Source: a virus (taxonomy: Duplodnaviria; Heunggongvirae; Uroviricota; Caudoviricetes). Taken from it: a DNA stretch of 36,569 bases. The notes below the pieces were generated by a model. The model was not told where the DNA came from, did not search any database, and saw nothing but the letters and a program-made list of their open reading frames with translations. Positions within the stretch are counted from its first letter, which is position 1; every line of letters begins with the position of its first letter. Below, one piece after another: positions 10,145 to 36,569 of the stretch. Both the position numbers and the translations under genes were made by a program. Location: the IMG/VR virus record IMGVR_UViG_2721755726_000003. One strand, written 5' to 3'.

Positions 10145-10711
10145 TCAGGGGGATTCATTGATCTTATTTGCCGGAAATTTTCTATAAATGGTAGAAACGC
10201 CTACATCAAAAATCAGTGCAATACGCTGTCTTGATTCTCCGGCCTCGAGTAAACGCCCAATCTGTGCCCACTGTTCGGTGGTCAACTTAGGACGGCGTCC
10301 ACCTACTCTGCCTTTGGCACGAGCTGCAGCCAGCCCTGCCCTGGTACGTTCAACTATCAGTTCGCGTTCCATTTCAGCCAGGGCACCCATGACATGAAAA
10401 AAGAAACGGCCCATTGGGGTACTGGTATCAATACTGTCAGTCAGGCTTCTGAAATTCACACCACGCTGGCGCAACTCTTCTATCAGCGTAACAAGATGCC
10501 GCATACTGCGCCCCAACCTGTCCAGCTTCCAGACAACCAGCGTGTCTCCTGACGATAGTGTCCTGAGTAGTTTTTTCAGCCCCGGTCTGTCGGACTTAGT
10601 GCCACTGATTTTGTCCTCAAAAATCCGCTCACATCCCGCGCAGTTCAGTGCATTACGTTGCAAATCGGTGTTCTGGTCATTTGTTGACACGCGTACATAG
10701 CCAATAAGCAT
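10145..10711 (-). CDS. serine DNA invertase (Hin/Gin/Cin/Pin family)
   Basis: N-terminal MLIGYVRVSTNDQ catalytic-serine motif, resolvase fold and C-terminal HTH; start taken at third codon of track ORF (GGGGGA SD 6 nt upstream). Confidence 0.9.
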   Translation of the reverse strand: MLIGYVRVSTNDQNTDLQRNALNCAGCERIFEDKISGTKSDRPGLKKLLRTLSSGDTLVVWKLDRLGRSMRHLVTLIEELRQRGVNFRSLTDSIDTSTPMGRFFFHVMGALAEMERELIVERTRAGLAAARAKGRVGGRRPKLTTEQWAQIGRLLEAGESRQRIALIFDVGVSTIYRKFPANKINESP

Positions 10712-10778
10712 GATCATCCCCCTGAATAAAAACCGGAGATGATGCCAGTTAGCTGTTACCTCTGCATTTTCTTAAACG

Positions 10779-10804: not shown

Positions 10805-11152
10805 GACGTGGGAACAGGGGAAAATCAGATACCGGATATGGTTTCATTTAGTGGTGTGAGGGATTTTTATGGAAAACAACTTTTGCCAGGAGGGTTGATA
10901 CTCCAGTGGCTGACGATTCCATCAAGTGCAGCAGTCAAAGCTGTAACACTGGATAATGGTAATTATCAGCTGTCAGGCTATAAATGGCCCCAGTCATTTG
11001 GTGTCCTGTTTGCTGTGTTTGCCACAAAAGTTTCTGGCTCGACTAACGAAGCATACGCAATCTCAGTTAATCGTCACTCTACCGATGTAATTGTCACCTG
11101 GAATGCCCGTAAGGCTGATGATGTCCATATTTTAGGAATTGGGAAATTATGA
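10779..11152 (+). CDS. alternative tail fibre C-terminal exon (silent orientation)
   Basis: Plus-strand frame encodes [20 protein letters not shown]..., matching the H crossover motif; no own start needed, would fuse to H after inversion. Confidence 0.7.
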
Positions 11153-11568
11153 AAATGAAATGGTCCCCATCTGTTCAGGGATTTTTCTCTGAAAACAACA
11201 GCGATATTCCCGATGATGCTTTCGATATTGAAGATGCTCTTTATTATGAACTTATGAATGGTCAGAGTACGGGGAAAATTATTATCAATAGCCCGGATAA
11301 CTACCCTGTACTTACTGAATATCCAGCGAAGACACATGAACAGGAAATAGCTGAAGCGGAGGGAATGAAAAATATACTTATTGAACAGGCCAACGATTAT
11401 ATGAACAGTAAACAATGGCCTGGTAAAGCGGCTATTGGCCGGCTGAAAGGTGAGGAACTGGCACAATATAATTTGTGGCTGGATTACCTGGACGCACTGG
11501 AACTGGTCGATACTTCCGGTGCGCCAGATATTGAATGGCCTACACCTCCGGTAACTCAGGCCAGCTAA
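11149..11568 (+). CDS. tail fibre assembly chaperone (alternative set)
   Basis: 139-aa ORF, ATGA overlap with alternative fibre end, C-terminal ...[11 protein letters not shown] motif shared with the minus-strand chaperone. Confidence 0.75.
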
Positions 11569-21801: not shown

Positions 21802-23568
21802 ATGAACACCACACTGACACCCGCAGATCTCGATCCCCGTCGGCAGGCCATGCTGCTGTACTTTCAGGGATACCGCGTAGCCCGCATTGCTGAAATGCTG
21901 GGCGAGAAAGTTGCAACCGTTCACAGCTGGAAAAAACGCGACAAGTGGGGTGACTATGGGCCGCTGGATCAGATGCAGCTCACCACCGCCGCACGCTACT
22001 GCCAGCTCATTATGAAGGAGCACAAAGAAGGGAAAGATTTCAAAGAGATTGACCTGCTGGCGCGCCAGTCGGAGCGCCATGCGCGGATCGGCAAGTTTAA
22101 CAATGGCGGCAACGAAGCCGACTTAAACCCTAACGTCGCCAACCGCAACAAAGGCCCGCGCCGTCAGCCGGAAAAGAACATTTTCACCGATGAACAGATT
22201 GAGAAGCTGGAAGAAATCTTCCATTCCTCCATGTTCAACTACCAGCGCCACTGGTGGGAAGCCGGAAAAACCAACCGCATCCGCAACCTGCTGAAGTCAC
22301 GCCAGATCGGCGCGACCTTCTATTTTGCCCGTGAAGCCCTGATTGACGCCCTGCTAACCGGGCGTAACCAGATTTTCCTTTCCGCCAGCAAGGCTCAGGC
22401 CCACGTCTTTAAGCAGTACATCATCGACTTCGCCAAAGAAGTGGAGGTGGAGCTGAAAGGCGATCCGATGGTGCTTCCTAACGGGGCCACGCTGTACTTC
22501 CTCGGCACCAATGCCCGCACGGCCCAGAGTTACCACGGCAACCTGTATCTGGATGAATATTTCTGGATACCGAAATTCCAGGAGCTGCGCAAAGTGGCTT
22601 CCGGTATGGCTATTCACAAAAAATGGCGACAAACCTATTTTTCCACGCCATCCAGCCTGACACACAGTGCTTATCCGTTCTGGTCCGGTGCGCTGTTCAA
22701 CCGAGGGCGCAACAAAGCCGATAAGGTGGACATCGACCTGTCCCACAGCAATCTGGCCCCCGGCCTGCTGTGCGCAGACGGGCAGTACCGCCAGATAGTC
22801 ACTGTGGAAGATGCGGTGCGCGGCGGCTGTAACCTGTTCGACCTCGACCAGTTGCGCATGGAGTACAGCCCGGACGAATACCAGAACCTGCTGATGTGTG
22901 AGTTCGTGGACGATCTCGCGTCTGTGTTCCCACTCAGCGAGCTGCAGGCGTGCATGGTGGACAGTTGGGAAGTCTGGACCGACTTTCATGCACTGGCCCT
23001 GCGCCCGTTTGGCTGGCGCGAAGTGTGGATCGGATATGACCCGGCGAAAGGTACGCAGAACGGCGACAGCGCCGGATGCGTGGTGGTGGCGCCGCCAGCC
23101 GTGCCGGGCGGTAAGTTCCGCATTCTTGAGCGTCACCAGTGGCGCGGAATGGACTTCCGCGCCCAGGCTGACGCCATCAAAAAACTGACCGAACAGTACA
23201 ACGTGACCTATATCGGTATCGACTCAACCGGCGTTGGTCACGGGGTTTACGAGAACGTGAAAGCGTTTTTTCCTGCCGTCCGGGAGTTTGTCTACAACCC
23301 CAACGTTAAAAACGCCCTGGTACTCAAGGCCTACGACATTATCAGCCACCGCCGTCTGGAGTTTGACGCCGGACACACCGACATAGCGCAGTCCTTTATG
23401 GCAATCCGTCGCGCCACCACCGCCAGTGGCAACCGCCCGACCTATGAAGCCAGCCGCAGCGAAGAAGCCAGCCACGCCGATCTGGCCTGGGCAACGATGC
23501 ACGCACTGTTTAACGAACCGCTGCAGGGCGAATCCGCCAATACCAGCAATATTGTGGAGATTTTTTGA
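21802..23568 (+). CDS. P: terminase ATPase (large) subunit P
   Basis: 588-aa ORF, P2 gpP-like. Confidence 0.9.
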   Translation: MNTTLTPADLDPRRQAMLLYFQGYRVARIAEMLGEKVATVHSWKKRDKWGDYGPLDQMQLTTAARYCQLIMKEHKEGKDFKEIDLLARQSERHARIGKFNNGGNEADLNPNVANRNKGPRRQPEKNIFTDEQIEKLEEIFHSSMFNYQRHWWEAGKTNRIRNLLKSRQIGATFYFAREALIDALLTGRNQIFLSASKAQAHVFKQYIIDFAKEVEVELKGDPMVLPNGATLYFLGTNARTAQSYHGNLYLDEYFWIPKFQELRKVASGMAIHKKWRQTYFSTPSSLTHSAYPFWSGALFNRGRNKADKVDIDLSHSNLAPGLLCADGQYRQIVTVEDAVRGGCNLFDLDQLRMEYSPDEYQNLLMCEFVDDLASVFPLSELQACMVDSWEVWTDFHALALRPFGWREVWIGYDPAKGTQNGDSAGCVVVAPPAVPGGKFRILERHQWRGMDFRAQADAIKKLTEQYNVTYIGIDSTGVGHGVYENVKAFFPAVREFVYNPNVKNALVLKAYDIISHRRLEFDAGHTDIAQSFMAIRRATTASGNRPTYEASRSEEASHADLAWATMHALFNEPLQGESANTSNIVEIF

Positions 23569-24602
23569 TGGGAAAGAGTAAGAAGAACCGCGCTGCGGCG
23601 ACGAAACAGATCCAGCTTAAAAGTCAAACTACAGCCGAAGCATTCAGCTTCGGCGATCCCGTTCCTGTTCTGGACCGCCGAGAACTGCTGGATTATGTGG
23701 AATGCGTACAGATGGACCGCTGGTATGAGCCGCCCGTCAGCTTTGACGGACTGGCGCGCACCTTCCGCGCTGCCGTTCATCATAGTTCCCCGATTGCAGT
23801 AAAGTGCAACATTCTGACCAGCACCTACATCCCTCACCCGCTGCTCAGCCAGCAGGCTTTTTCGCGTTTTGTGCAGGACTATCTGGTATTTGGTAACGCC
23901 TACCTGGAGAAACGCACGAACCGCTTCGGTGAAGTTATCTCCCTTGAACCTGCCTTGGCAAAATACACCCGACGCGGGTTAGACCTGGATACCTACTGGT
24001 TTGTGCAATACGGTATGACCACGCAGCCATATCAGTTCACGAAAGGCAGCATCTTTCATCTGATGGAACCGGACATCAACCAGGAGATCTACGGCCTGCC
24101 CGGTTATCTTTCTGCTATTCCATCCGCCCTGCTCAACGAGTCTGCCACGCTGTTCCGCCGCAAGTATTACATTAACGGCAGTCATGCAGGCTTCATCATG
24201 TATATGACCGACGCCGCGCAGAACCAGGAAGATGTGAACAACCTCCGCAACGCGATGAAAAGCGCCAAAGGCCCTGGCAACTTCCGCAACCTGTTTATGT
24301 ACTCGCCTAACGGCAAAAAGGACGGGCTTCAGATCATCCCGTTGTCAGAAGTCGCAGCGAAAGATGAATTTCTGAACATCAAGAACGTGAGCCGGGACGA
24401 CATGATGGCTGCACACCGCGTACCGCCTCAGATGATGGGAATTTTGCCGAATAATGTTGGGGGGTTTGGGGATGTGGAGAAGGCAAGTCGGGTATTTGTT
24501 CGTAATGAATTAATACCTTTGCAAAAACGTTTCGAAGAATTAAATTTATGGCTAAAAAATAATATTATTACATTCAAAGAATATCAACTATCCCTAGACT
24601 AA
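23565..24602 (+). CDS. Q: portal protein Q
   Basis: 345-aa ORF, P2 gpQ-like, ATGA overlap with P. Confidence 0.9.
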   Translation: MMGKSKKNRAAATKQIQLKSQTTAEAFSFGDPVPVLDRRELLDYVECVQMDRWYEPPVSFDGLARTFRAAVHHSSPIAVKCNILTSTYIPHPLLSQQAFSRFVQDYLVFGNAYLEKRTNRFGEVISLEPALAKYTRRGLDLDTYWFVQYGMTTQPYQFTKGSIFHLMEPDINQEIYGLPGYLSAIPSALLNESATLFRRKYYINGSHAGFIMYMTDAAQNQEDVNNLRNAMKSAKGPGNFRNLFMYSPNGKKDGLQIIPLSEVAAKDEFLNIKNVSRDDMMAAHRVPPQMMGILPNNVGGFGDVEKASRVFVRNELIPLQKRFEELNLWLKNNIITFKEYQLSLD

Positions 24603-24607
24603 TTAAT

Positions 24608-24628
24608 AACCACCTCTATGAGGTGGTT
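24608..24628. terminator. hairpin between convergent Q and 469-aa gene
   Basis: Perfect 9-bp stem aaccacctc/gaggtggtt with 3-nt loop, AT-rich flanks. Confidence 0.45.
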
Positions 24629-24649
24629 AACAAGAATAAACCTAATTAA

Positions 24650-26059
24650 TTACTCATCTACTCTGATTTTTTGTTTTTTATTATTTTGAGTTAAGACATT
24701 TATGGTAATAGATGTATACGGATGAAAGTCAGGCACTATACTTTTAACCTCTCCATTTTCAAGAAAATGATGTGCTATTGAAGGAAATAAATCAGGATCT
24801 ACAGGATATTTAGCATTAGGATTATGATACATATTTAAACCTTCTGCCCATGTTTCTGTAATATCGCCTTCTTTCACTTCAAAACTAAATGCTGCTGGAT
24901 ATAATGCCTCTGGGTCATGATCATGGCAGTAACCACTCCTAAATAATCTAAGGTCACTTCTTCCAAAACCAGCCAGTTTTCCCATCCGATTAAACTTCGA
25001 TATAGTACCACTATTAGAACTAAGGACGGCCGAAATATTTTCAGACTCATCCAAGAAGAAAAAGCCTGAAGGAATTTCCTTTTTCTCAAATTGATGCGAT
25101 ATAATTTTCTTAGTTGCTAAACTGTAACATCCATCTTCAGATTTAACATGCTCATAGCGAATACCATAAAGATACTGCCAAAGTGCACTATGGGACCAAA
25201 TCATAGAGTTTGGTTCATGAAAATCAGCAATTGCGAAAATTAAAGGATTCCCCTTAACATGTTCTAGATCCCAGTATCGAGTTTTCTTTTTCAGTTTAGA
25301 ATAGAGAGAACTTCCAAATTTAATCGGCATATAATTCTCTATTTTCTCTAGCAATTCTTCCTTACTTTTAGGTTCAGATAGCATTTCAGATGATTGATTA
25401 ATATCATTCCCTGTTGGATTAACCGTTACAGCTTCAATGCAAATAGTATTACCATACTTACGTGCCACATAATCAGGGGCATTAAACTGCCTATCTAGCC
25501 AAAAGTGTTCCTCTCGTAAATATGCGAAAAGATATAACTCCCATAGCCGGGCATCAAAACCTGTTGTCTGAAACTGCTCTATAAAATTCCCGTCGACATC
25601 CTCAAAATGATTCATCATTTCCTTGATTATCCCTGTTGCAGGCGACCAGTTCGCGTATTTACCAAATAATGAAAAATGATGATGAAGTTTATCTGGTGTA
25701 ACTATAGGTGTGAATAAATCCATTGCTTTATAAGTTTCATCACCTTGTGGAAATACTTTTACGTTTAATTTAGTATGCTTCCGCATTAATTTCTTTAGTT
25801 TTGCTCGTGCAGAATTCATTTCTGAAACACTAGTAAATAGGTCAATACATCTATATCTCCCACTTAAGTCTCTTGCTAAAACAATACCGCTATAATCTTC
25901 ATCGATTTGATCCAATAATAGTGCCCCTAGCAGGAACTCTCTCGGACTACAGTACCACTCAAACTCATAGCCTAAAAGTTCAGTATTTGGCATTCTGGTC
26001 CAATCAACAAAAGCATTAAACCTCTCTTTACTCATTTTTTTTATATCAAGAAAAGACAT
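24650..26059 (-). CDS. hypothetical 469-aa protein, AT-rich accessory gene (candidate defence/exclusion cargo)
   Basis: Long uninterrupted ORF, ATG start with GAGGT SD, visibly AT-rich against GC-rich phage core; no family recognised by eye. Confidence 0.75.
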   Translation of the reverse strand: MSFLDIKKMSKERFNAFVDWTRMPNTELLGYEFEWYCSPREFLLGALLLDQIDEDYSGIVLARDLSGRYRCIDLFTSVSEMNSARAKLKKLMRKHTKLNVKVFPQGDETYKAMDLFTPIVTPDKLHHHFSLFGKYANWSPATGIIKEMMNHFEDVDGNFIEQFQTTGFDARLWELYLFAYLREEHFWLDRQFNAPDYVARKYGNTICIEAVTVNPTGNDINQSSEMLSEPKSKEELLEKIENYMPIKFGSSLYSKLKKKTRYWDLEHVKGNPLIFAIADFHEPNSMIWSHSALWQYLYGIRYEHVKSEDGCYSLATKKIISHQFEKKEIPSGFFFLDESENISAVLSSNSGTISKFNRMGKLAGFGRSDLRLFRSGYCHDHDPEALYPAAFSFEVKEGDITETWAEGLNMYHNPNAKYPVDPDLFPSIAHHFLENGEVKSIVPDFHPYTSITINVLTQNNKKQKIRVDE

Positions 26060-26157
26060 CTTTCTACCTCATCACGAAAAAATATTTTTTCCTAAAAAGA
26101 CTTAAGTTAGCTTAATCTATCGATAAAAAAAAGCTAAGTAACGACCAAATACGCGCG

Positions 26158-26176
26158 CTCGTATCCCCGCCACGCC
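26158..26176 (-). other. putative cos (cohesive end) site
   Basis: Minus-strand GGCGTGGCGGGGATACGAG resembles the P2/186 19-nt cohesive end (GGCG-A/T-GGCGGGGA...), oriented toward Q. Confidence 0.4.
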
Positions 26177-26197
26177 TGCCCGCTTTATGCAGTGGTT

Positions 26198-26303
26198 TTC
26201 ATGCACATGCATGACATGAGCAAAAGCCCGCCAGTTCTGGCGGATCTGAGCAAAGACGATCCTCAATCGATCATGCGATTTCATGCAGCATAGTCATGCA
26301 CTG
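26198..26303. repeat. cluster of short CATGCA/CATGCG/CATGAC motifs and a 16-bp palindrome next to putative cos
   Basis: At least six CATGxx hexamers in about 100 bp plus palindrome ccgccagttctggcgg at 26228..26243; possible terminase or regulator binding sites. Confidence 0.3.
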
Positions 26304-26555
26304 TCAAGGAAGTGAAAATCCGTATCTGAATGGCCACTTGAAAAACGGATCATACGGGTTTACAAAGATGAATGTTCGCTGTGAACGGGAAGCGGAAGTT
26401 AACTTTCAGATAACATAATCCATATGCACGAGAACCTCTAAAATAGAATGGGACACCTAAGCGGGGTACTTACAACGATTCTTTCCATATTCACAGTTAA
26501 CACTCTGTTTGGCGTATTTTTATTCAAATAGCAAACACCAATAAAAGGAGTTTCC

Positions 26556-26891
26556 ATGAACAATATTCCCCCTATACCACAGTTAGGAATTTATGTCTCA
26601 AAAATCGATCCCACCCTACGTATCACTGTAACCGATGTTGATATTGTTGATGGTGAGGATGATTCTCCTGATGATGAATTGTTTTATTTAGTCCACTGGA
26701 TCGAGGGGGAAGATGAAAGTGATATGACAGCAATGGGATTTGAGCTAGACCCATTAGAGTGGCAGGCTTTCGTTGAATCTGAGCAATTAGTGTTTGAGCG
26801 TGATCCGTACATGGATTCAATCCCCGAAAATTCAAACTTGGCAAAGATTCGGGATTTTCTCATGAAGACTAAACAGAATGATCATTCGTAA
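26556..26891 (+). CDS. hypothetical small acidic protein (111 aa)
   Basis: ATG with AAGGAG SD; about 26 Asp/Glu against about 7 basic residues by hand count; AT-rich. Confidence 0.65.
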   Translation: MNNIPPIPQLGIYVSKIDPTLRITVTDVDIVDGEDDSPDDELFYLVHWIEGEDESDMTAMGFELDPLEWQAFVESEQLVFERDPYMDSIPENSNLAKIRDFLMKTKQNDHS

Positions 26892-27083
26892 GTGTAAGCA
26901 TCCATCAGGAAAATGGTTTTGTAAGTGAATCATCAACTTTTAGAGAGTCTCAGACACTCCCACTTCTGCTTCTGACACAAAGCGGACGATCACTTATCAA
27001 AATAACCGCCCACCTTACGCCTTATTTCACTCATTGCCCAAACTAGCCCCCATCAGAATGAATCCTCCTGGGGGCAACATTTC

Positions 27084-27317
27084 TTAATGCAGCCAGCTGT
27101 CGTCCTCCCACACCTTCTGCATAATTTTCATCACTTGTTTTCTTTCTTCATCCAGTTGCAGTCCGGTTAGTTCCACACCGTTAGAGCTACCTTTGCGAAT
27201 GCGAATTACCGTTTTGGGATACAGGGGGCGCAGATTGCGGTAAAGCTCGGATTCAAGTGCGTCCAGGGTAGACTGGCTAATCTTCTGCTCTTTATCGATC
27301 ATTATTTCAATGCGCAT
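27084..27317 (-). CDS. DinI-family protein
   Basis: 77-aa product MRIEIMIDKEQKIS...KVWEDDSWL resembles E. coli DinI (MRIEVTI...WESADDWF); start at internal Met with GGTGA SD, track ORF extends to 27389. Confidence 0.7.
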   Translation of the reverse strand: MRIEIMIDKEQKISQSTLDALESELYRNLRPLYPKTVIRIRKGSSNGVELTGLQLDEERKQVMKIMQKVWEDDSWLH

Positions 27318-27327
27318 AAAAGTCACC

Positions 27328-27516
27328 TCAGCTGATGACATCCATTGAGCGGTTGTATTCGTGGCTTCTGATTTTTGCCATGAGTTCATCAGTCAATTCA
27401 GAAACCCACTGCAGAGCCAGCCCCTTCTCTTCATCACTACACTCACTAGCCGCTACAAGCTTAAGAAAAAAATCAATGCGCTGGAGCTTCAAAGACTCCA
27501 AAAAATAGTCCTGCAT
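27328..27516 (-). CDS. hypothetical 62-aa SOS-operon protein (possible N-terminal part of a Tum-like antirepressor)
   Basis: ATG with GGAGG SD immediately downstream of LexA box; stops 11 nt before DinI-like start. Confidence 0.5.
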   Translation of the reverse strand: MQDYFLESLKLQRIDFFLKLVAASECSDEEKGLALQWVSELTDELMAKIRSHEYNRSMDVIS

Positions 27517-27557
27517 CTTTCCTCCTATGACACCAAAACAATACTGTATGCATAACC

Positions 27558-27577
27558 ACTGTTTATATTTACAGTAT
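27558..27577 (-). promoter_or_regulatory. LexA box (SOS operator) with promoter
   Basis: ACTGTTTATATTTACAGTAT matches CTGT-N8-ACAG consensus; TTTACA -35-like hexamer just upstream on the minus strand; degenerate second half-site at 27541..27556. Confidence 0.7.
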
Positions 27578-27668
27578 ATAATAATCTTACTGATGTAAAA
27601 CGTTTTTTTACGTTCATCGGCCTGATATGCCTGGTATTATTAAGAGCACGAATTGTTAACCCGCGTAA

Positions 27669-30089
27669 TTAATACAGGTTCCGCCACTTATCATCTTCCT
27701 TCAGACGCTGGTTCCGATAGAAGATACGCAGGCCTGCTCCTGACGGAATACTGCCGCCGCGAAGGAGCAAATCGACTTCTTTCTCGCTGCCATCAAATCC
27801 CCTGGACTTCAGTTCATAGACGAGCTGCTGTCGCTGATGGTCTGTAATTCGCTGTTTGTAGTCTTTACGCCGTTTCGGTTTCACCTGGCGTAACCTTGCA
27901 GCCAGTTCCCGGCGCTCTTTTTTGCTCATACTGTGCAGGTAATCGTGCAACTCCTTGTCATTCATACGGGTAATATCCGTTCTGGAGTCCCCATCAGCTG
28001 ATTTGTCTTTCCCTTGTTGGTTCAAATTTTCAGCAAGGGGACAGTTATTGCCACGAGTCCAAGGGGCGCAAGCGCCCTGGTCGGCTGCCGCCTCCTGAAC
28101 GTCAACGGCCTTACGAACCATTTTCCACTTCACCGCATGAGTGCAGATCTTGCCCTCTGCAATGGGTGACCAGATGCCATAAATACGAATACCGTGATCG
28201 CCATAGGCGGTTGGCTCTTCGTTGATTTCATAAGCGGTTCTGATGAGGTGATATTTACGGGGAACCAGTACGCCGCCCTGCTTCATGATATAGGTGGCAA
28301 AACAACCAGCATCAGCAGCAGCCAGAATGGCATCAAGGCGCGGGTTATCCAGTACCGGCGCACCTGCTTTTTTGTCACCCTGTTGCCTTGCCGCCTGACC
28401 AGCCAGCAATCGCAGTTCACGGTAAGCCTGACGCCCCGGAATGCCAAAGAAGCGGAATTGCTGAACACGATGCAGAGACGCCCAGGCATTAACGTATTCA
28501 GCGTTATCACGCAGGGATTTACCCGTTTCCTTGCTGATCTCCCCAGCCAGACCACGCCCGTCAATGTTCTTACTGATGTATTTCGCGATGTAGCTTGTTG
28601 GCGTACCTTTGCGCGGGTTTATCAGCTCAGACTTAAAGCGTGGTCCCGTGTTATTGCCCAGCTCCTCGCGGTCTTCACGGATGGCAAACTTACGCAGTAA
28701 TGCAGTGATGGCGCGGCGGTCTTTTTTACGCATGAAACACATGAGATGCCAGTGCACAGTACCGTCATGATGCGGCTCAGCTACCCGCACGCCATACCAG
28801 CGCAACTCGGCTTTATGCATAGCCTTACGAAATGCAGCAAACATGCCGACCAGATAATCGCTACTTTGTCTTACCGTCGCGTTTGTCCAGGTCGGGTTTG
28901 GTCTGCCGTTATTGAGCGTGGAATGGAAACGCGACGGACAGGTGATAGTGTAGAAAACGGCACAGTCACTGCGCATTTCCGCGATAAGCTCCAGACCTTT
29001 AACACAGGCCATCATCTCATTGCGGCGATGCGCCGGGTTGCTGCTGCTGGCGTTTACCACATCTTCCATATCCAGCGTGTCGCCGTCTTCGTTCACCAGT
29101 TCATGAGAACGAAAAAACTCCAGCGACTTACGGCGCTGCTCACGTTTATGCATCACGGCTTCATAGCTGACATAGGGGGATGCTTTTTTGCTGACCAGGC
29201 AGACAGCACGCAACTGCTCTTCCCGCCATTCGCAACGCATCTTCCATAATTTCCGATACCACCAGTCGGCACACAACATACGCGCCAGCGAACCCGGGAT
29301 GAGTTCATAGGGCACTGGTTTGCGGCGGTTTCTTTTCCGACGAAGTTTCTCAAACGCAGGCGGGATAACATCCAGACGCAGGGTTTCCGCTGCCACCTTT
29401 TCCCATGTCTTGCGGATTTCTTCTGGCTTAACGTCATCGGTGGCATACAAATCACCACAAGCGTCCTCAAGACACATGCTCATATGCGCTGCTACCAGGG
29501 TGGACAGGCGTTTCACCTGATCCTGGCTCATTTCAGGCAGGATCAGCAGCCCCTCCAGCCCTTGATGGCTTGCCATAAAACGGAAAGAAACAGATAGCTG
29601 ACTGTCACGTACACAATCCAGTCGCTCCAGACATGGCTTAATCGTCTCACGCAAATAGCGGGAATAAGCCTTTGGCCTGCCCAGGCTGCTGAAGTATTCA
29701 ATACGTTGCATCAGCGGCTTGCTGATATGGGAAGGCTGGGCGTTTACGTCCGCCAGAATGACCATGTCCGGATTAAAACGCTGCTGCTCATGCGCCAGCT
29801 TTGCCCGGCTAATGAGCTTATCCTGCTCCATTTCGCGCTGGACAGGATCACGGGATTCATTAAAGAAATAACGCTCCCAGACCTGCTCACTCAGTGCCTC
29901 GCGGCGCAGTTGCTCCTGCTCGTTATCGGCAGCGTACAGAGTGATCAGGTTTGAAAGTGCAGACTCCGGCGCAACTTCCGCCGGGTCCAGATAAGGGTTA
30001 ATGGCCTTTTTCGAGCCGTTCCATGAAAATGCTGCGGCGGCCTCGTTAAAGCCGCTGCAATTGTTCATATCGTCATGACTCATACACAC
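27669..30089 (-). CDS. A: rolling-circle replication initiation protein A
   Basis: 806-aa ORF, P2 gpA-like, HWH metal-binding motif (VHWHLMCF) and catalytic Tyr-containing YIAKYISK. Confidence 0.9.
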
Positions 30090-32826: not shown

Positions 32827-33768
32827 ATGTCAACTAATAAAATCACATTTCGCCATATTGAAGATCATCTGAAAGCCATGGTCATGCAGAATCGAGGAGG
32901 GCAAAAAGTCATTGAGAGAATACTCATGGCCTATGGTTTCAAATCACGCCAAGCATTCTGTAACCACCTTGGTATTTCACAAAGTACAATGGCTAACAGA
33001 TATGCACGCGATACCTTCCCTGCTGATTGGGTTGTTATATGTTCAATGGAAACTGGCGCATCAATCGAATGGTTAGCATTTGGTTTAGATGCTGAAGAAG
33101 GAGTGCCAGTTCCTTCGCCAGAACGGCATGCTGAAAAACAGTCTGCAGATGAATTTTGCAATGAAGTTCACACCCCCACGATAAAGTTCGATAATGAAAA
33201 CCACATGGATTTCACTCGAGGGGGTAAAGCAGCAATAGAGCGAATTGTTAAGGCTTACGGTTACAAAACGCGCCAAGCCTTAGCCGATCACCTTGGTATC
33301 TCAAAAAGCACATTAGCTACACGATACATGCGAGACATTTTTCCGGCAGACTGGATCATCCAATGCTGTTTAGAAACAGGAGTGTCTCTCGAGTGGTTAT
33401 CTTTTGGTAAGGGGCATTCCAATCAAACAAAGCTAAGTGGGTTGCTTACATTAGACTGCTATGATCTACGTGACGGCAAACTTACTGATCAAAGAGAATT
33501 AATCGTTTCGAGCGAAATTTTACCTCAAAATTTAAAACATCCCTATATAGTTAATTCCGCAAATGATTCATATATCATTAGCAAAGAGGAGTATCTTAGC
33601 GATGGTCTATGGTTAGTATCTATTAACGGAGAATTTACTTTTAGAGACATATTTAAACTTCCAAACAATCGCATCCGCGTTGAAAACACAAAATATAGCT
33701 TTGAATGCGATAAAGAAGATTTGGAATTTAATAATAAAGTTAAAGGAATAATTAGAAAAAGGGTTTAA
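32827..33768 (+). CDS. cI: CI immunity repressor with tandemly duplicated N-terminal DNA-binding domain
   Basis: Two about 67-aa repeats (residues 22-88 and 130-196) each resembling the 186 CI N-terminal domain, then a C-terminal domain. Confidence 0.7.
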   Translation: MSTNKITFRHIEDHLKAMVMQNRGGQKVIERILMAYGFKSRQAFCNHLGISQSTMANRYARDTFPADWVVICSMETGASIEWLAFGLDAEEGVPVPSPERHAEKQSADEFCNEVHTPTIKFDNENHMDFTRGGKAAIERIVKAYGYKTRQALADHLGISKSTLATRYMRDIFPADWIIQCCLETGVSLEWLSFGKGHSNQTKLSGLLTLDCYDLRDGKLTDQRELIVSSEILPQNLKHPYIVNSANDSYIISKEEYLSDGLWLVSINGEFTFRDIFKLPNNRIRVENTKYSFECDKEDLEFNNKVKGIIRKRV

Positions 33769-33770
33769 CA

Positions 33771-34820
33771 ATGAGCTTTACGAAAACTATTGAATTTGCA
33801 AACTATACCTTAAATTTTGGAGAGGACAAAGTTCTCTTAGATGCTTTTGATTGCATTGTTTTTCCTTCATTTTTCGCACAAAAATACGTTAGAAAATTTA
33901 AAGATACAGAATATTTCTTTACTGACACAAAAATTATTACGTTAGATACTACAGATTCAGATTTTATTGGTCCTATAGTTCCAACAATTGCATTGTGTGG
34001 CCGCATTATAAAAAAGACCATATTTAAACGAGATCAAATATTTCAAGATGGTCAATTAATTCGAGATCACAGGACGCTAGAAAGTCACCCCAGCTCTATT
34101 TTTATTCTTATGCTTAATGAGCACAGATTAATGCTTTGCAAAGAGGTTTCTGGAGCCCCTACCCTAGAAGAATTTGAAAATACTAGCAAGTATTGCCTTG
34201 CACAGCGATATAATTCTTTTGTGGATTACGAAGTAAAAAAAAATAAAAGAATTAGAAAGAAAAAATCATACATTGATCGACTGTATAAAAAAGATATTTA
34301 TCGTAAACTAGGAGCCCCCAAATTACGGGTTACCCCCTTAACAGACCCAAGATCATTGAGCAATTTTGTTGAACTCTTTTCTGTTGTTAATAGATTATCA
34401 ATTGAGTTATTGCCAACAAATAGTGAAAATATATCTCTTGATGGCTTCTGGAGGAAAATTGAACAAGAAAAAGAAGAACTTAATAGTAGTAAAGCTCAAT
34501 TAGTATACACAAATAAAAATGAAGATGGTTTAAATTCTGAGGCCGTCATTCAAAAAACAACAAGTGCAACCCGAATGGCCAACTCTAAAGTAATTATCAG
34601 TGGTAAAGATGAACACGGAGCAAGGCTATCAGGGAATAATGATAGTTTTACTCTAAAAGCATCAAGGCCACAACTTAGTTCTGATTTGGAAAGAGCTGCT
34701 CAAGAGGCGTATTCTGCATTCACAGAATTAAAGGATGAAGGAAATATTATTATTCCAGAACGTGAAGATTATACTAAAATTTTTTCCAAGTTAACATCAA
34801 TAATTTCTAGGTGGCTATAG
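33771..34820 (+). CDS. hypothetical 349-aa soluble protein, component A of cI-linked accessory cassette
   Basis: ATG 2 nt after cI stop; AT-rich; Lys-rich central segment; no recognised motif. Confidence 0.7.
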   Translation: MSFTKTIEFANYTLNFGEDKVLLDAFDCIVFPSFFAQKYVRKFKDTEYFFTDTKIITLDTTDSDFIGPIVPTIALCGRIIKKTIFKRDQIFQDGQLIRDHRTLESHPSSIFILMLNEHRLMLCKEVSGAPTLEEFENTSKYCLAQRYNSFVDYEVKKNKRIRKKKSYIDRLYKKDIYRKLGAPKLRVTPLTDPRSLSNFVELFSVVNRLSIELLPTNSENISLDGFWRKIEQEKEELNSSKAQLVYTNKNEDGLNSEAVIQKTTSATRMANSKVIISGKDEHGARLSGNNDSFTLKASRPQLSSDLERAAQEAYSAFTELKDEGNIIIPEREDYTKIFSKLTSIISRWL

Positions 34821-34821
34821 T

Positions 34822-35427
34822 ATGAAATATACATTCAACCCAGAAGATCTGACCAAAGAGCGATCTTTGCATGATGTTTACAAATTAACTAAAAAAATAA
34901 AGGTCAATTCATTTGACTTTTATTTCACATTATTGTTAGTGATATTATTATCTATTAATGCTTTTTGTCTATCTTCATCACCAGAGTTAATTTCATCTAT
35001 TAGACAATGGACACCTTTAGTATTCGGATTCACTACAACAACATTAGGTTTTTTAATTACTGGATTTACAATATTTGCAACCATAAATAAACCTGAACTT
35101 TTCCTTTCATTAATGGAGTATAAGCATCCATTATACGGGATAAGTTACTTAAAATATGTTTATGGTGTATTTATGAGAGTATTTATATATTTCATATTTT
35201 GGTCTGTTATCTATCTTTTAGTCCTTCTTTTCGGGCAAGAAAATGGATTGGCTACAAAATTACTCAGAGCCTTAATGTTTTCTCATTGCACTAAAGTTGT
35301 TGGAGTTCAAATACTATATATACTCGTAGGAAGCAGTGCAGTGTTCCTTGTATTAACTTTAAAAACTTTCCTGTTCAATATTTATGCTATGTTAATGCAA
35401 TCTCTACGCTGGGAAGTAGAAAGATAA
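34822..35427 (+). CDS. hypothetical 201-aa membrane protein with four predicted TM helices, component B of cI-linked accessory cassette
   Basis: ATG 1 nt after upstream stop with AGGTGG SD; four hydrophobic stretches of about 20 residues; AT-rich. Confidence 0.7.
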   Translation: MKYTFNPEDLTKERSLHDVYKLTKKIKVNSFDFYFTLLLVILLSINAFCLSSSPELISSIRQWTPLVFGFTTTTLGFLITGFTIFATINKPELFLSLMEYKHPLYGISYLKYVYGVFMRVFIYFIFWSVIYLLVLLFGQENGLATKLLRALMFSHCTKVVGVQILYILVGSSAVFLVLTLKTFLFNIYAMLMQSLRWEVER

Positions 35428-35516: not shown

Positions 35517-36569
35517 ATGGCAGTACGAAAACTCACCACAGGAAAATGGCTATGCGAATGTTACCCCGCGGGACGTAGTGGACGTCGTGTGCGTAAACAA
35601 TTCGCCACCAAAGGTGAAGCTCTGGCTTTTGAGCGTCACACGATGGAAGAAACCGAAGCAAAGCCCTGGCTGGGTGAATCAGTGGATCGTCGAACACTGA
35701 AAGACGTGGTTGAGCTATGGTTCAAACTACATGGTAAATCTCTGACAGCTGGGCAGCATGTCTATGACAAATTGCTGTTGATAGTTGACGCTCTGGGCAA
35801 TCCCCTTGCAACCGATCTCACCTCTAAAATGTTTGCCCACTATCGAGATAAACGCCTGACAGGAGAGATCTACTTCAGCGAAAAATGGAAGAAAGGAGCA
35901 AGCCCGGTCACCATTAACCTGGAGCAAAGCTATCTTAGTAGTGTTTTTAGCGAACTATCCCGCCTGGGCGAATGGTCGTATCCGAACCCACTGGAGAACA
36001 TGCGAAAATTCACCATCGCAGAAAAAGAGATGGCATGGCTTACCCATGAGCAGATTGTTGAATTACTGGCTGATTGCAAACGTCAGGACCCAATTCTGGC
36101 ACTGGTAGTTAAGATATGCTTAAGCACAGGCGCACGCTGGCGAGAAGCCGTAAATCTTACTCGTTCACAGGTGACCAAATACCGAATTACCTTTGTAAGA
36201 ACGAAGGGGAAGAAAAACAGAAGCATCCCTATCAGTAAAGAGCTTTACGAAGAGATCATGGCGCTTGATGGGTTCAATTTCTTCACAGACTGCTATTTTC
36301 AATTTTTATCCGTGATGGAAAAAACGTCTATCGTGCTCCCTCGCGGTCAACTCACACACGTTCTGCGCCATACGTTTGCAGCGCACTTCATGATGTCGGG
36401 TGGAAACATCCTGGCCTTACAAAAAATTCTCGGACATCACGATATAAAAATGACGATGCGTTACGCACATCTGGCACCGGATCATCTGGAAACGGCGCTC
36501 CGTTTCAATCCTCTGGCAACGCTGCCAAGTGGCGACAAAGTGGCGGCAGCGGTTGGCATTACCCCGTAA
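35517..36569 (+). CDS. int: tyrosine integrase (P2/186 family)
   Basis: 350-aa ORF with C-terminal R...H..R...Y catalytic region (HVLRHTFA...MRYAHL); stop codon is last 3 bases of window. Confidence 0.9.
   Translation: MAVRKLTTGKWLCECYPAGRSGRRVRKQFATKGEALAFERHTMEETEAKPWLGESVDRRTLKDVVELWFKLHGKSLTAGQHVYDKLLLIVDALGNPLATDLTSKMFAHYRDKRLTGEIYFSEKWKKGASPVTINLEQSYLSSVFSELSRLGEWSYPNPLENMRKFTIAEKEMAWLTHEQIVELLADCKRQDPILALVVKICLSTGARWREAVNLTRSQVTKYRITFVRTKGKKNRSIPISKELYEEIMALDGFNFFTDCYFQFLSVMEKTSIVLPRGQLTHVLRHTFAAHFMMSGGNILALQKILGHHDIKMTMRYAHLAPDHLETALRFNPLATLPSGDKVAAAVGITP

Follow-up and report, generated by a model that had tools for sequence, protein, structure and literature searches.

A small acidic DUF8087 protein encoded beside cos in a P2-like prophage: salvage from a lysogeny operon and a possible role as a polyanionic decoy

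What does a small, strongly acidic protein encoded next to cos do for the prophage that carries it? The question is raised by the virus record IMGVR_UViG_2721755726_000003, a stretch of 36,569 nucleotides (called here the window, at its full length) that is a P2/186/Fels-2-like prophage and carries such an open reading frame (ORF) on the plus strand at 26556-26891. The original prediction for this locus, made from the letters alone, offered two answers: a DNA mimic or other anti-restriction or anti-defence factor, or equally an unrelated moron. Here the protein was assigned to family DUF8087, and its gene was traced to a lysogeny operon, from which a fragment has spread as a small cassette.

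The gene and its family

The gene and its ribosome-binding site are placed as follows.

26556-26891, plus strand: DUF8087 gene, encoding a 111-residue cytoplasmic protein (translation, phrog_17127 match, ratio of nonsynonymous to synonymous divergence (dN/dS), AlphaFold2 model)
26545-26550, plus strand: Shine-Dalgarno sequence AAGGAG, read directly, 5 nt ahead of the ATG

Translation of the window gave a 111-residue protein of 12.8 kDa containing 15 Asp, 11 Glu, 4 Lys, 3 Arg and 2 His residues, with a net charge of -19 and an isoelectric point (pI) of 4.05. This recount agreed exactly with the ORF, the composition (about 15 Asp and 11 Glu against about 7 basic residues) and the AAGGAG motif given in the original prediction. 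The G+C content of the ORF is 40%, against 51% for the window.

The relationship of the protein to known families was explored by profile and sequence searches. The phrog_17127 profile was matched from end to end (residues 1-111 of 111, E 6.6e-70), and the same PHROG was matched by all 32 of a set of diverse family members. A search of 5.8 billion proteins recovered 61 clusters of homologues (50-99% identity), every one of them from Enterobacterales and with the tag PF26332, the model that carries the name DUF8087; this label was found on every homologue. An identical protein, WP_001059830.1, is named 'DUF8087 domain-containing protein' by RefSeq. On sequence grounds the ORF is therefore a genuine gene and not a chance ORF, because the PHROG match is full-length, the 61 clusters share the PF26332 tag, dN/dS is about 0.2 and RefSeq has named the product. 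A minus-strand ORF overlapping it was considered as the true gene and rejected, the substitutions fitting the plus-strand frame.

The family is small. When 1.8 billion representative proteins were searched exhaustively with a profile, only 35 matches came back, and a second, word-indexed search returned 88. Distant members are 68-132 residues long, 30-45% identical and aligned over residues 1-80. The core residues P8, G11, Y13 and W69 are conserved in the family alignments, while the insert rich in Asp and Glu varies in length. All 105 members examined had a pI below 5 (maximum 4.99) and an Asp plus Glu content of about 23%, and the acidity persisted down to 30% identity. Strong acidity is thus a selected and conserved trait of the whole family.

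No match to the protein was found in NCBIfam or, at E <=1, in a copy of Pfam without the DUF8087 model, and when the 32 diverse members were scanned singly against Pfam at E <=5 only scattered lone matches were seen, with no family in common. Homology to a known non-defence family, which the original prediction had named as evidence against itself, was not found in these three scans, so that this objection to it does not arise. PADLOC-DB 2.0 gave no match at E <=1, although a neighbouring gene matched PD-T7-1 in the same scan, and a profile search of Protein Data Bank (PDB) sequences gave one chance match (E 0.21).

Predicted structure

Two AlphaFold2 runs, one from 35 sequences (predicted local distance difference test (pLDDT) score 74) and one from 70 (pLDDT 83.7, predicted template modelling score 0.69), agreed with each other. 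The model contains strands at residues 11-15, 22-31, 43-50, 61-64 and 78-82, and helices at 66-76, 84-87 and 94-108; Enterobacterales members have an extra C-terminal helix. The nearest folds were SH3/Tudor-like, namely EF-P domain I, the CarD N-terminal domain and the Tudor domains of UvrD/PcrA, all of them SH3-like small barrels that serve as binding modules. Neither a catalytic fold nor a known DNA mimic was among the matches in this fold comparison, and a search of a viral structure library added nothing. DUF8087 is thus predicted to be a soluble, non-enzymatic, SH3-like beta-barrel of about 80 residues with polyacidic loops. Structure prediction had been proposed as a check on the DNA-mimic idea, and the model resembles no known DNA mimic.

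Origin in a lysogeny operon

Two classes of DUF8087 locus were distinguished. The first is an intact operon, found in P2-like prophages of Klebsiella aerogenes, Enterobacter kobei, Scandinavium and Buttiauxella, in which the order is a helix-turn-helix (HTH) repressor, a Flk_N-like protein of 211-247 residues with a C-terminal membrane anchor, DUF8087, and an integrase whose start overlaps the DUF8087 stop. The DUF8087 homologues in these operons are 57-77% identical. This repressor-integrase (lysogeny) operon of P2-like prophages is the original home of the gene.

The gene in the window belongs to the second class, the cassette type, whose proteins are 84-100% identical. The cassette is about 560 bp long (approximately 26373-26935 in the window) and consists of the 3' end of the Flk_N-like gene, an intact DUF8087 gene and the decayed 5' end of the integrase gene. 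Its parts, beside the DUF8087 gene itself, are the following.

26373-26555, plus strand: upstream relic, the 3' end of a Flk_N-like gene, 82-96% identical in seven other genera
26448-26531, plus strand: hydrophobic 27-codon mini-ORF MGHLSGVLTTILSIFTVNTLFGVFLFK within the upstream relic, with the hydrophobic tail LSGVLTTILSIFTVNTLFGVFLFK running up to its stop codon
26878-26935, plus strand: 5' relic of a P2-type integrase gene, overlapping the last DUF8087 codons; MIIRKCKHPSGKWFCK followed by a stop at 26878-26928

Cassette DNA was found at 82-96% identity in Raoultella, Morganella, Serratia, Symbiopectobacterium, Lonsdalea, Proteus and Escherichia coli ECONIH1, and an Edwardsiella homologue (85% identical) is followed by the same integrase relic. 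A DNA alignment pairs the upstream relic with the 3' end of Flk_N-like genes that are intact in Scandinavium and Enterobacter prophages. The mini-ORF within it is kept in the cassettes of other genera and has lost its ATG in Morganella; it was considered as a functional toxin and rejected, both on account of this lost start and because it aligns with the tail of the longer Flk_N-like gene. Probably it is a relic of the membrane-anchor end of that gene. Downstream, the first 45-55 codons of a P2-type integrase were recognised 3' of the ORF at loci L003, L011, L021 and L023-L026 (tblastn with intact integrases as queries, E 1e-8 to 7e-18), interrupted by stop codons in the Raoultella (L003) and Proteus (L026) copies, while in the window only about 10 codons are still recognisable (KHPSGKWFCK, E 0.09).

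Taken together, the alignments show that one ancestral fragment escaped from the lysogeny operon and spread as a cassette of about 560 bp, reaching eight or more genera and mobile elements of several kinds, its destinations being cos-proximal slots of P2-like prophages, lambdoid prophages and integrative islands. A longer cassette occupies the same slot in the P2-like loci L063-L065, where DUF8087 is followed by a 71-codon integrase relic, a 127-residue membrane protein and a GNAT acetyltransferase. The window lineage trimmed this longer cassette to DUF8087 alone.

Several observations were made on genes around these loci. The 127-residue protein, which is conserved and has an N-terminal membrane helix, lies behind the cassette at five loci (8538-8921 in L021, L025 and L026; 6529-6912 in L036; 6538-6921 in L063); it had no Pfam or PADLOC match, and the spacer ahead of its gene contains TATAAT. 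Behind it, in Lonsdalea and Edwardsiella, comes a convergent gene for a 646-residue DUF4365-TPR protein, 94% identical between two different mobile elements. In the intact operons, the C terminus of the HTH repressor (GQGNRxAGRDYNENKK) and the N terminus of the Flk_N-like protein (NRxxGRDFxExN) have a short motif in common, which looks like the product of a duplicated junction (L005 6722-7990, L027 6857-7970, L034 4923-5976). In the window itself, the interval from the CI repressor gene (32827-33768) to the integrase gene (35517 onward) holds two plus-strand ORFs, one of 349 residues (33771-34820) and one of 201 (34822-35427), both without a Pfam or PADLOC match. Since they sit in the slot that holds Flk_N and DUF8087 in Klebsiella and Enterobacter, they may be lysogen-expressed cargo or a candidate defence module.

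Selection on the reading frame

Eight cassettes from eight genera were compared in the DUF8087 frame, and the mean dN was 0.043 and the mean dS 0.21, a dN/dS of about 0.2. The frame was unbroken in all eight, the sole change in length being an in-frame deletion of 9 nt in the acidic loop. These comparisons point to purifying selection on the DUF8087 frame while the gene fragments on both its flanks decayed. Given an intact frame, a dN/dS of about 0.2 and decayed neighbours, the ORF has therefore been preserved in its own right after the loss of its former neighbours.

The Shine-Dalgarno sequence is kept as AAAGGA or AAGGAG across cassettes of other genera. The upstream relic, at 82-96% identity, is more conserved than the synonymous divergence (dS 0.05-0.40) predicts, an excess that fits a retained promoter or an untranslated region (UTR) or leader. 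Presumably the relic now holds the DUF8087 promoter and 5' UTR. No RNA element close to the ORF was detected when 24000-28000 was scanned with Rfam, and a terminator scan gave terminator-like sites only inside the cos block and inside the DinI operon.

Two slots separated by cos

The surroundings of the gene in the window were then laid out as follows.

23565-24602, plus strand: portal gene Q
24650-26059, minus strand: PD-T7-1 defence gene, 469 residues, 35% G+C (PADLOC PDLC04073, E 1.4e-196)
26152-26302: conserved cos block of 151 bp, assigned from its sequence, separating the DUF8087 slot from the portal-side defence slot
26158-26176, minus strand: putative 19-nt cohesive end GGCGTGGCGGGGATACGAG, spotted by eye
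26303-27073: variable slot of 771 bp holding the cassette, from the cos block to the DinI-like operon, delimited by backbone comparison
27084-27389, minus strand: DinI-like gene (PF06183, E 1e-22)
27328-27516, minus strand: ORF of 62 residues, phrog_698
27559-27574: LexA box CTGTTTATATTTACAG, a perfect CTGT-N8-ACAG, ahead of the 62-residue ORF and the DinI-like gene
27669-30089, minus strand: replication gene A
35517-36569: integrase gene

The original prediction had placed the gene next to cos and between an SOS operon and cos. Both placements hold: the cos block lies at 26152-26302, with the linear records of phages SEN8, Midge and Cartapus having ends that map to window positions 26177, 26168 and 26209, and on the other side the LexA box precedes the DinI-like gene on the minus strand. 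The cohesive end GGCGTGGCGGGGATACGAG resembles that of phage 186; a search for the exact P2 cohesive end, with 3 mismatches allowed, found no site. The DUF8087 ORF starts about 380 bp from cos and is transcribed away from it, convergently with the SOS-controlled DinI-like operon. SOS control of DUF8087 itself was considered and rejected, since the sole LexA box serves the operon on the opposite strand.

Similarity to vB_EcoM-813R9 and Fels-2 ends at 26302 and picks up again at 27074-27086. In vB_EcoM-813R9 the slot on the gpA side of cos spans only 68 bp; Fels-2 has an unrelated gene, STM2726, at this place. The idea of an unrelated moron was therefore borne out to this extent, that the gene is part of an independently acquired accessory cassette, found also in lambdoid prophages and islands. 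The slot on the portal side (24603-26151) holds PD-T7-1 in the window.

The cos block was found in 1302 of 5426 complete E. coli genomes, and the DUF8087 ORF in 213 of the 5426 (about 4%). An identical protein, WP_001059831.1, occupies the same slot in several strains with a different portal-side cassette each time.

E. coli S10: retron Ec67
BL21: retron St85-family reverse transcriptase and effector
Enteropathogenic E. coli (EPEC) E2348/69: DprA-like gene
E9: SIR2 and AAA ATPase

Next, 32 P2-like loci whose DUF8087 ORFs are at least 96% identical were compared. The portal-side slot between Q and cos fell into 21 unrelated sequence classes, while the block comprising cos, a 253-bp spacer, the DUF8087 ORF and dinI was invariant. 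DUF8087 is not tied to any particular defence cassette. A role as a component of PD-T7-1 was rejected, as cos intervenes and 21 different cassettes stand in for PD-T7-1. Because the portal-side slot has 21 contents among 32 related prophages, the published P2 'cos-proximal hotspot' is really two slots split by cos: one on the portal side, which swaps defence systems fast, and one on the gpA side, fixed with DUF8087. The gene shares the gpA-gpQ variable region with the known P2 cos-proximal morons (P2 old, tin, retrons and PD-T7-1; PMC9122126). It differs from them in occupying its own slot on the gpA side, whereas the swapping defence cassettes lie portal-side, and in having no PADLOC match.

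Two strains deserve a separate remark. In Proteus hauseri (L026, 9265-10626) a 453-residue PD-T7-1 homologue lies downstream of the cassette on the same strand; it is 36-44% identical to that of the window in tblastx segments, and this second independent co-occurrence may be chance, in view of the traffic through hotspots. The P2-like prophage of BL21 (L019, 7114-8559) is defective, its replication endonuclease and CII genes being truncated pseudogenes, and its acidic ORF, DinI-like gene and retron are all intact.

DUF8087 is confined to mobile elements: P2-like prophages, a lambdoid prophage, integrase-bounded islands and small elements with an integrase and a gpA replicon. In a distant context from Nitrosospira the gene adjoins a TIR-NLR gene in a small integrative element with an integrase, an HTH_17 protein and a gpA-type replication protein. 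Distant metagenomic contigs carry an integrase, DUF8087 and SRA-HNH, then HamA and a DEAD-box helicase (Hachiman-like), and metagenomic elements also have the HTH_17 and gpA-type replication proteins. The common denominator of these contexts is an integrating mobile element, the gene often lying beside the integrase, and not any single defence system.

Comparison with known small acidic proteins

T7 Ocr, ArdA, ArdB/KlcA, T4 Arn and the acidic anti-CRISPRs AcrIIA4 and AcrF2 are small, strongly acidic, non-enzymatic products of single genes carried as cargo on mobile elements. DUF8087 resembles them in being the small, strongly acidic product of a single mobile-element-borne gene that is independent of its neighbours. 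The small beta-barrels of DUF1653 (PDB 3be3) and FeoA are also among the closest known systems, and the Pfam DUF1653 model was not matched by DUF8087.

A precedent for the proposed mode of action is the CarS antirepressor (CarS1) of Myxococcus xanthus, a non-enzymatic protein of SH3 topology and pI 4.1 that mimics operator DNA and sequesters the DNA-recognition helix of a repressor (PMC2926617). CarS and DUF8087 are both small and highly acidic (pI 4.1 for CarS1 and 4.05 for DUF8087), and CarS is built on a five-stranded SH3-like barrel, to which the predicted DUF8087 barrel may be comparable; homology between the two was not found.

Possible function

Most small acidic proteins encoded singly as mobile-element cargo are inhibitors, as in the cases of Ocr, ArdA, Arn and many anti-CRISPRs. 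That tendency, together with the CarS precedent, suggests stoichiometric binding of a basic partner. The best explanation at present, put forward tentatively, is that DUF8087 may be a non-enzymatic polyanionic decoy or inhibitor that benefits its mobile element. Such a decoy would be expressed from a promoter retained in the Flk_N relic and would act alone, binding and neutralising a basic nucleic-acid-binding protein either in the manner of the SH3-fold operator mimic CarS or in that of DNA mimics such as Ocr, ArdA and many anti-CRISPRs. The beneficiary would be the element that carries the gene, and the likeliest class of target would be factors of the host or of a rival element that act on foreign DNA, whether newly arrived or resident. 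A nuclease-type defence and a xenogeneic silencer are examples, and the role would amount to anti-defence in a broad sense. In support of the decoy explanation stand a real and conserved gene, conserved acidity, the CarS precedent, confinement to mobile elements, selection on the ORF standing alone, independence of neighbouring defence genes and the conserved upstream relic.

A stronger formulation, which would make DUF8087 a new family of nucleic-acid mimics, polyanionic and of SH3 fold, that neutralise, alone, a DNA-binding defence or silencing protein of the host or a rival, is somewhat doubtful. If it is true, that activity would explain why the gene was rescued as its lysogeny operon decayed and why it spread as a one-gene cassette across Enterobacterales prophages and islands, those of BL21(DE3) and EPEC E2348/69 included. 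An anti-defence role is a plausible hypothesis, and the original prediction as a whole was upheld in part: acidity across the whole family speaks for it, whereas the absence of sequence or fold likeness to known mimics, the origin in a lysogeny operon and the lack of a fixed defence partner speak against.

A number of points weigh against the decoy explanation, the chief ones being the ancestral position in a lysogeny operon and the lack of similarity to known mimics. In the intact arrangement DUF8087 is co-transcribed with the immunity repressor and the integrase, so that it would be expressed in the lysogen and not early in infection; this position is a classic one for prophage exclusion or defence morons, early anti-defence genes usually lying elsewhere, and it differs from the early or leading-region position of genes of the Ocr and ArdA type. 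The constant pairing with a membrane protein in the intact operon suggests a two-component system. DUF8087 shared no Pfam family, PDB sequence match or fold match with Ocr, ArdA, ArdB/KlcA, Arn or the acidic anti-CRISPRs. Broad anti-defence genes are often present in both phages and plasmids; a tblastn search of 50,697 phage records found no DUF8087, however, and among 72,556 plasmids the single record was a P2-like element. A consensus scan found no sigma-70 promoter upstream of the ORF. Searches of the AntiDefenseFinder type have found almost no anti-defence genes in P2-like prophages (PMC13586616). Lastly, a literature search for PF26332, DUF8087 and WP_001059831 returned zero papers that mention the family. 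The protein was entered as 'hypothetical' among P2 loci, beside RVT_1 and AAA_15/21, in Table S5A of Rousset et al. (PMC9122126); because of this entry, and because no paper names the family, it counts as catalogued in P2-hotspot tables and never characterised. What is new here is the origin of DUF8087, the anatomy of the cassette, its independence from the adjacent defence slot and the fold assignment, the family itself having been catalogued already.

The alternative that survives best, although it is on balance unlikely, is that DUF8087 is a lysogen-expressed component of prophage exclusion or defence, originally one half of a two-gene module with the Flk_N-like protein in a position analogous to lambda rexAB, and that the cassette form still hinders superinfecting phages, for example by titrating a DNA-binding protein of theirs. 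In every intact locus the repressor, Flk_N-like, DUF8087 and integrase genes follow one another in this order on the same strand, 10-25 nt apart or overlapping, and the repressor-integrase slot is a cargo slot, filled in the window by two unrelated ORFs. Defence-type genes lie beside cassette copies in almost every context, among them a helicase-PLD gene of Mokosh-II-like architecture, LmuB_C/MC3/CTD7, DUF4365-TPR, the PD-T7-1 homologue, TIR-NLR, and HamA with a DEAD-box helicase (Hachiman-like) and SRA-HNH; most of the unknown genes tested in P4 hotspots, moreover, proved defensive (PMC13586616). These neighbours nevertheless differ in nearly every locus, which argues for an association with hotspots and not with a specific system. 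DUF8087 itself has no PADLOC match and no enzymatic or sensor domain, and a soluble acidic protein of 111 residues would be atypical as a stand-alone defence effector. The membrane partner is truncated in all cassette copies while the ORF is still under selection, and distant members have no Flk_N-like neighbour.

It is less likely still that DUF8087 regulates its own element by binding the immunity repressor or else the integrase, for instance at the basic N-terminal domain with which the integrase binds arm sites, in this way tuning integration, excision or the choice between lysis and lysogeny, possibly also in trans on related integrases. The integrase is the only neighbour that recurs over distant lineages: its start is overlapped by DUF8087 in Enterobacterales prophages, DUF8087 lies 40 nt behind it in metagenomic gpA-type elements, it is found near DUF8087 in Nitrosospira, and every host element has one, including the window (35517-36569). 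CarS, as an SH3-like acidic protein that sequesters a repressor recognition helix, is a precedent here as well (PMC2926617). In the cassette form, however, the cognate integrase has been destroyed and the ORF conserved, and cassettes reside in elements with unrelated integrases (P4-type, lambdoid and P2-type). It is hard to see why an antirepressor would be transcribed together with the very repressor that it opposes, and known directionality factors are basic DNA binders, of opposite charge. The chief point against both of these alternatives is the same, namely that the partner gene and the integrase were destroyed in the cassette and the ORF preserved.

Very improbable is the last alternative, a functionless hitch-hiking relic conserved through the youth of the cos-DinI backbone: most E. 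coli copies of the block (cos, 253-bp spacer, ORF and dinI) share at least 99% identity, which leaves little time for decay within E. coli, both flanks are gene fragments, the consensus scan found no promoter and the BL21 prophage is itself defective, but dN/dS is about 0.2 across genera, eight of eight cassettes are free of stops and frameshifts while the adjacent 150-nt integrase relic has them in several copies, the ORF was kept when the rest of the longer cassette was deleted, and the Shine-Dalgarno and upstream region are conserved.

Other features of the window

The 62-residue ORF and the DinI-like gene, the latter resembling what is annotated as TumB-like in Fels-2, look like an SOS induction module of the 186 tum type. 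An inverted repeat, GCCCCCA and TGGGGGC, was seen by eye at 27046-27075, between the DinI-like operon and DUF8087, and was not called by the terminator scan. An Rfam match to IS009 at 25227-25388 on the minus strand, within the PD-T7-1 coding sequence, scored 23 bits against a gathering threshold of 117 (E 0.018) and is almost certainly due to chance. Far from cos, a serine resolvase/invertase gene (PF00239 and HTH_7; 10145-10717, minus strand) adjoins a tail-fibre assembly gene (Caudo_TAP), and a 137-residue ORF lies beside these two, the features spanning 10145-10717 (minus strand) and 11149-11568 (plus strand). This region is probably an invertible tail-fibre host-range switch of the Cin/Gin type.

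Implications

Nothing in the analysis demonstrates an unusual mechanism for DUF8087, and should the gene prove to have no phenotype it is an ordinary moron. The identical protein is present in BL21 and in EPEC E2348/69, which makes the gene easy to test, and everyday cloning and phage experiments could be affected if the protein acts on integrases, nucleoid proteins or defence systems. If DUF8087 is an inhibitor of the mimic type, it would add a new fold to the small acidic anti-defence proteins and would indicate that genes of this kind can survive as pieces rescued from lysogeny operons.

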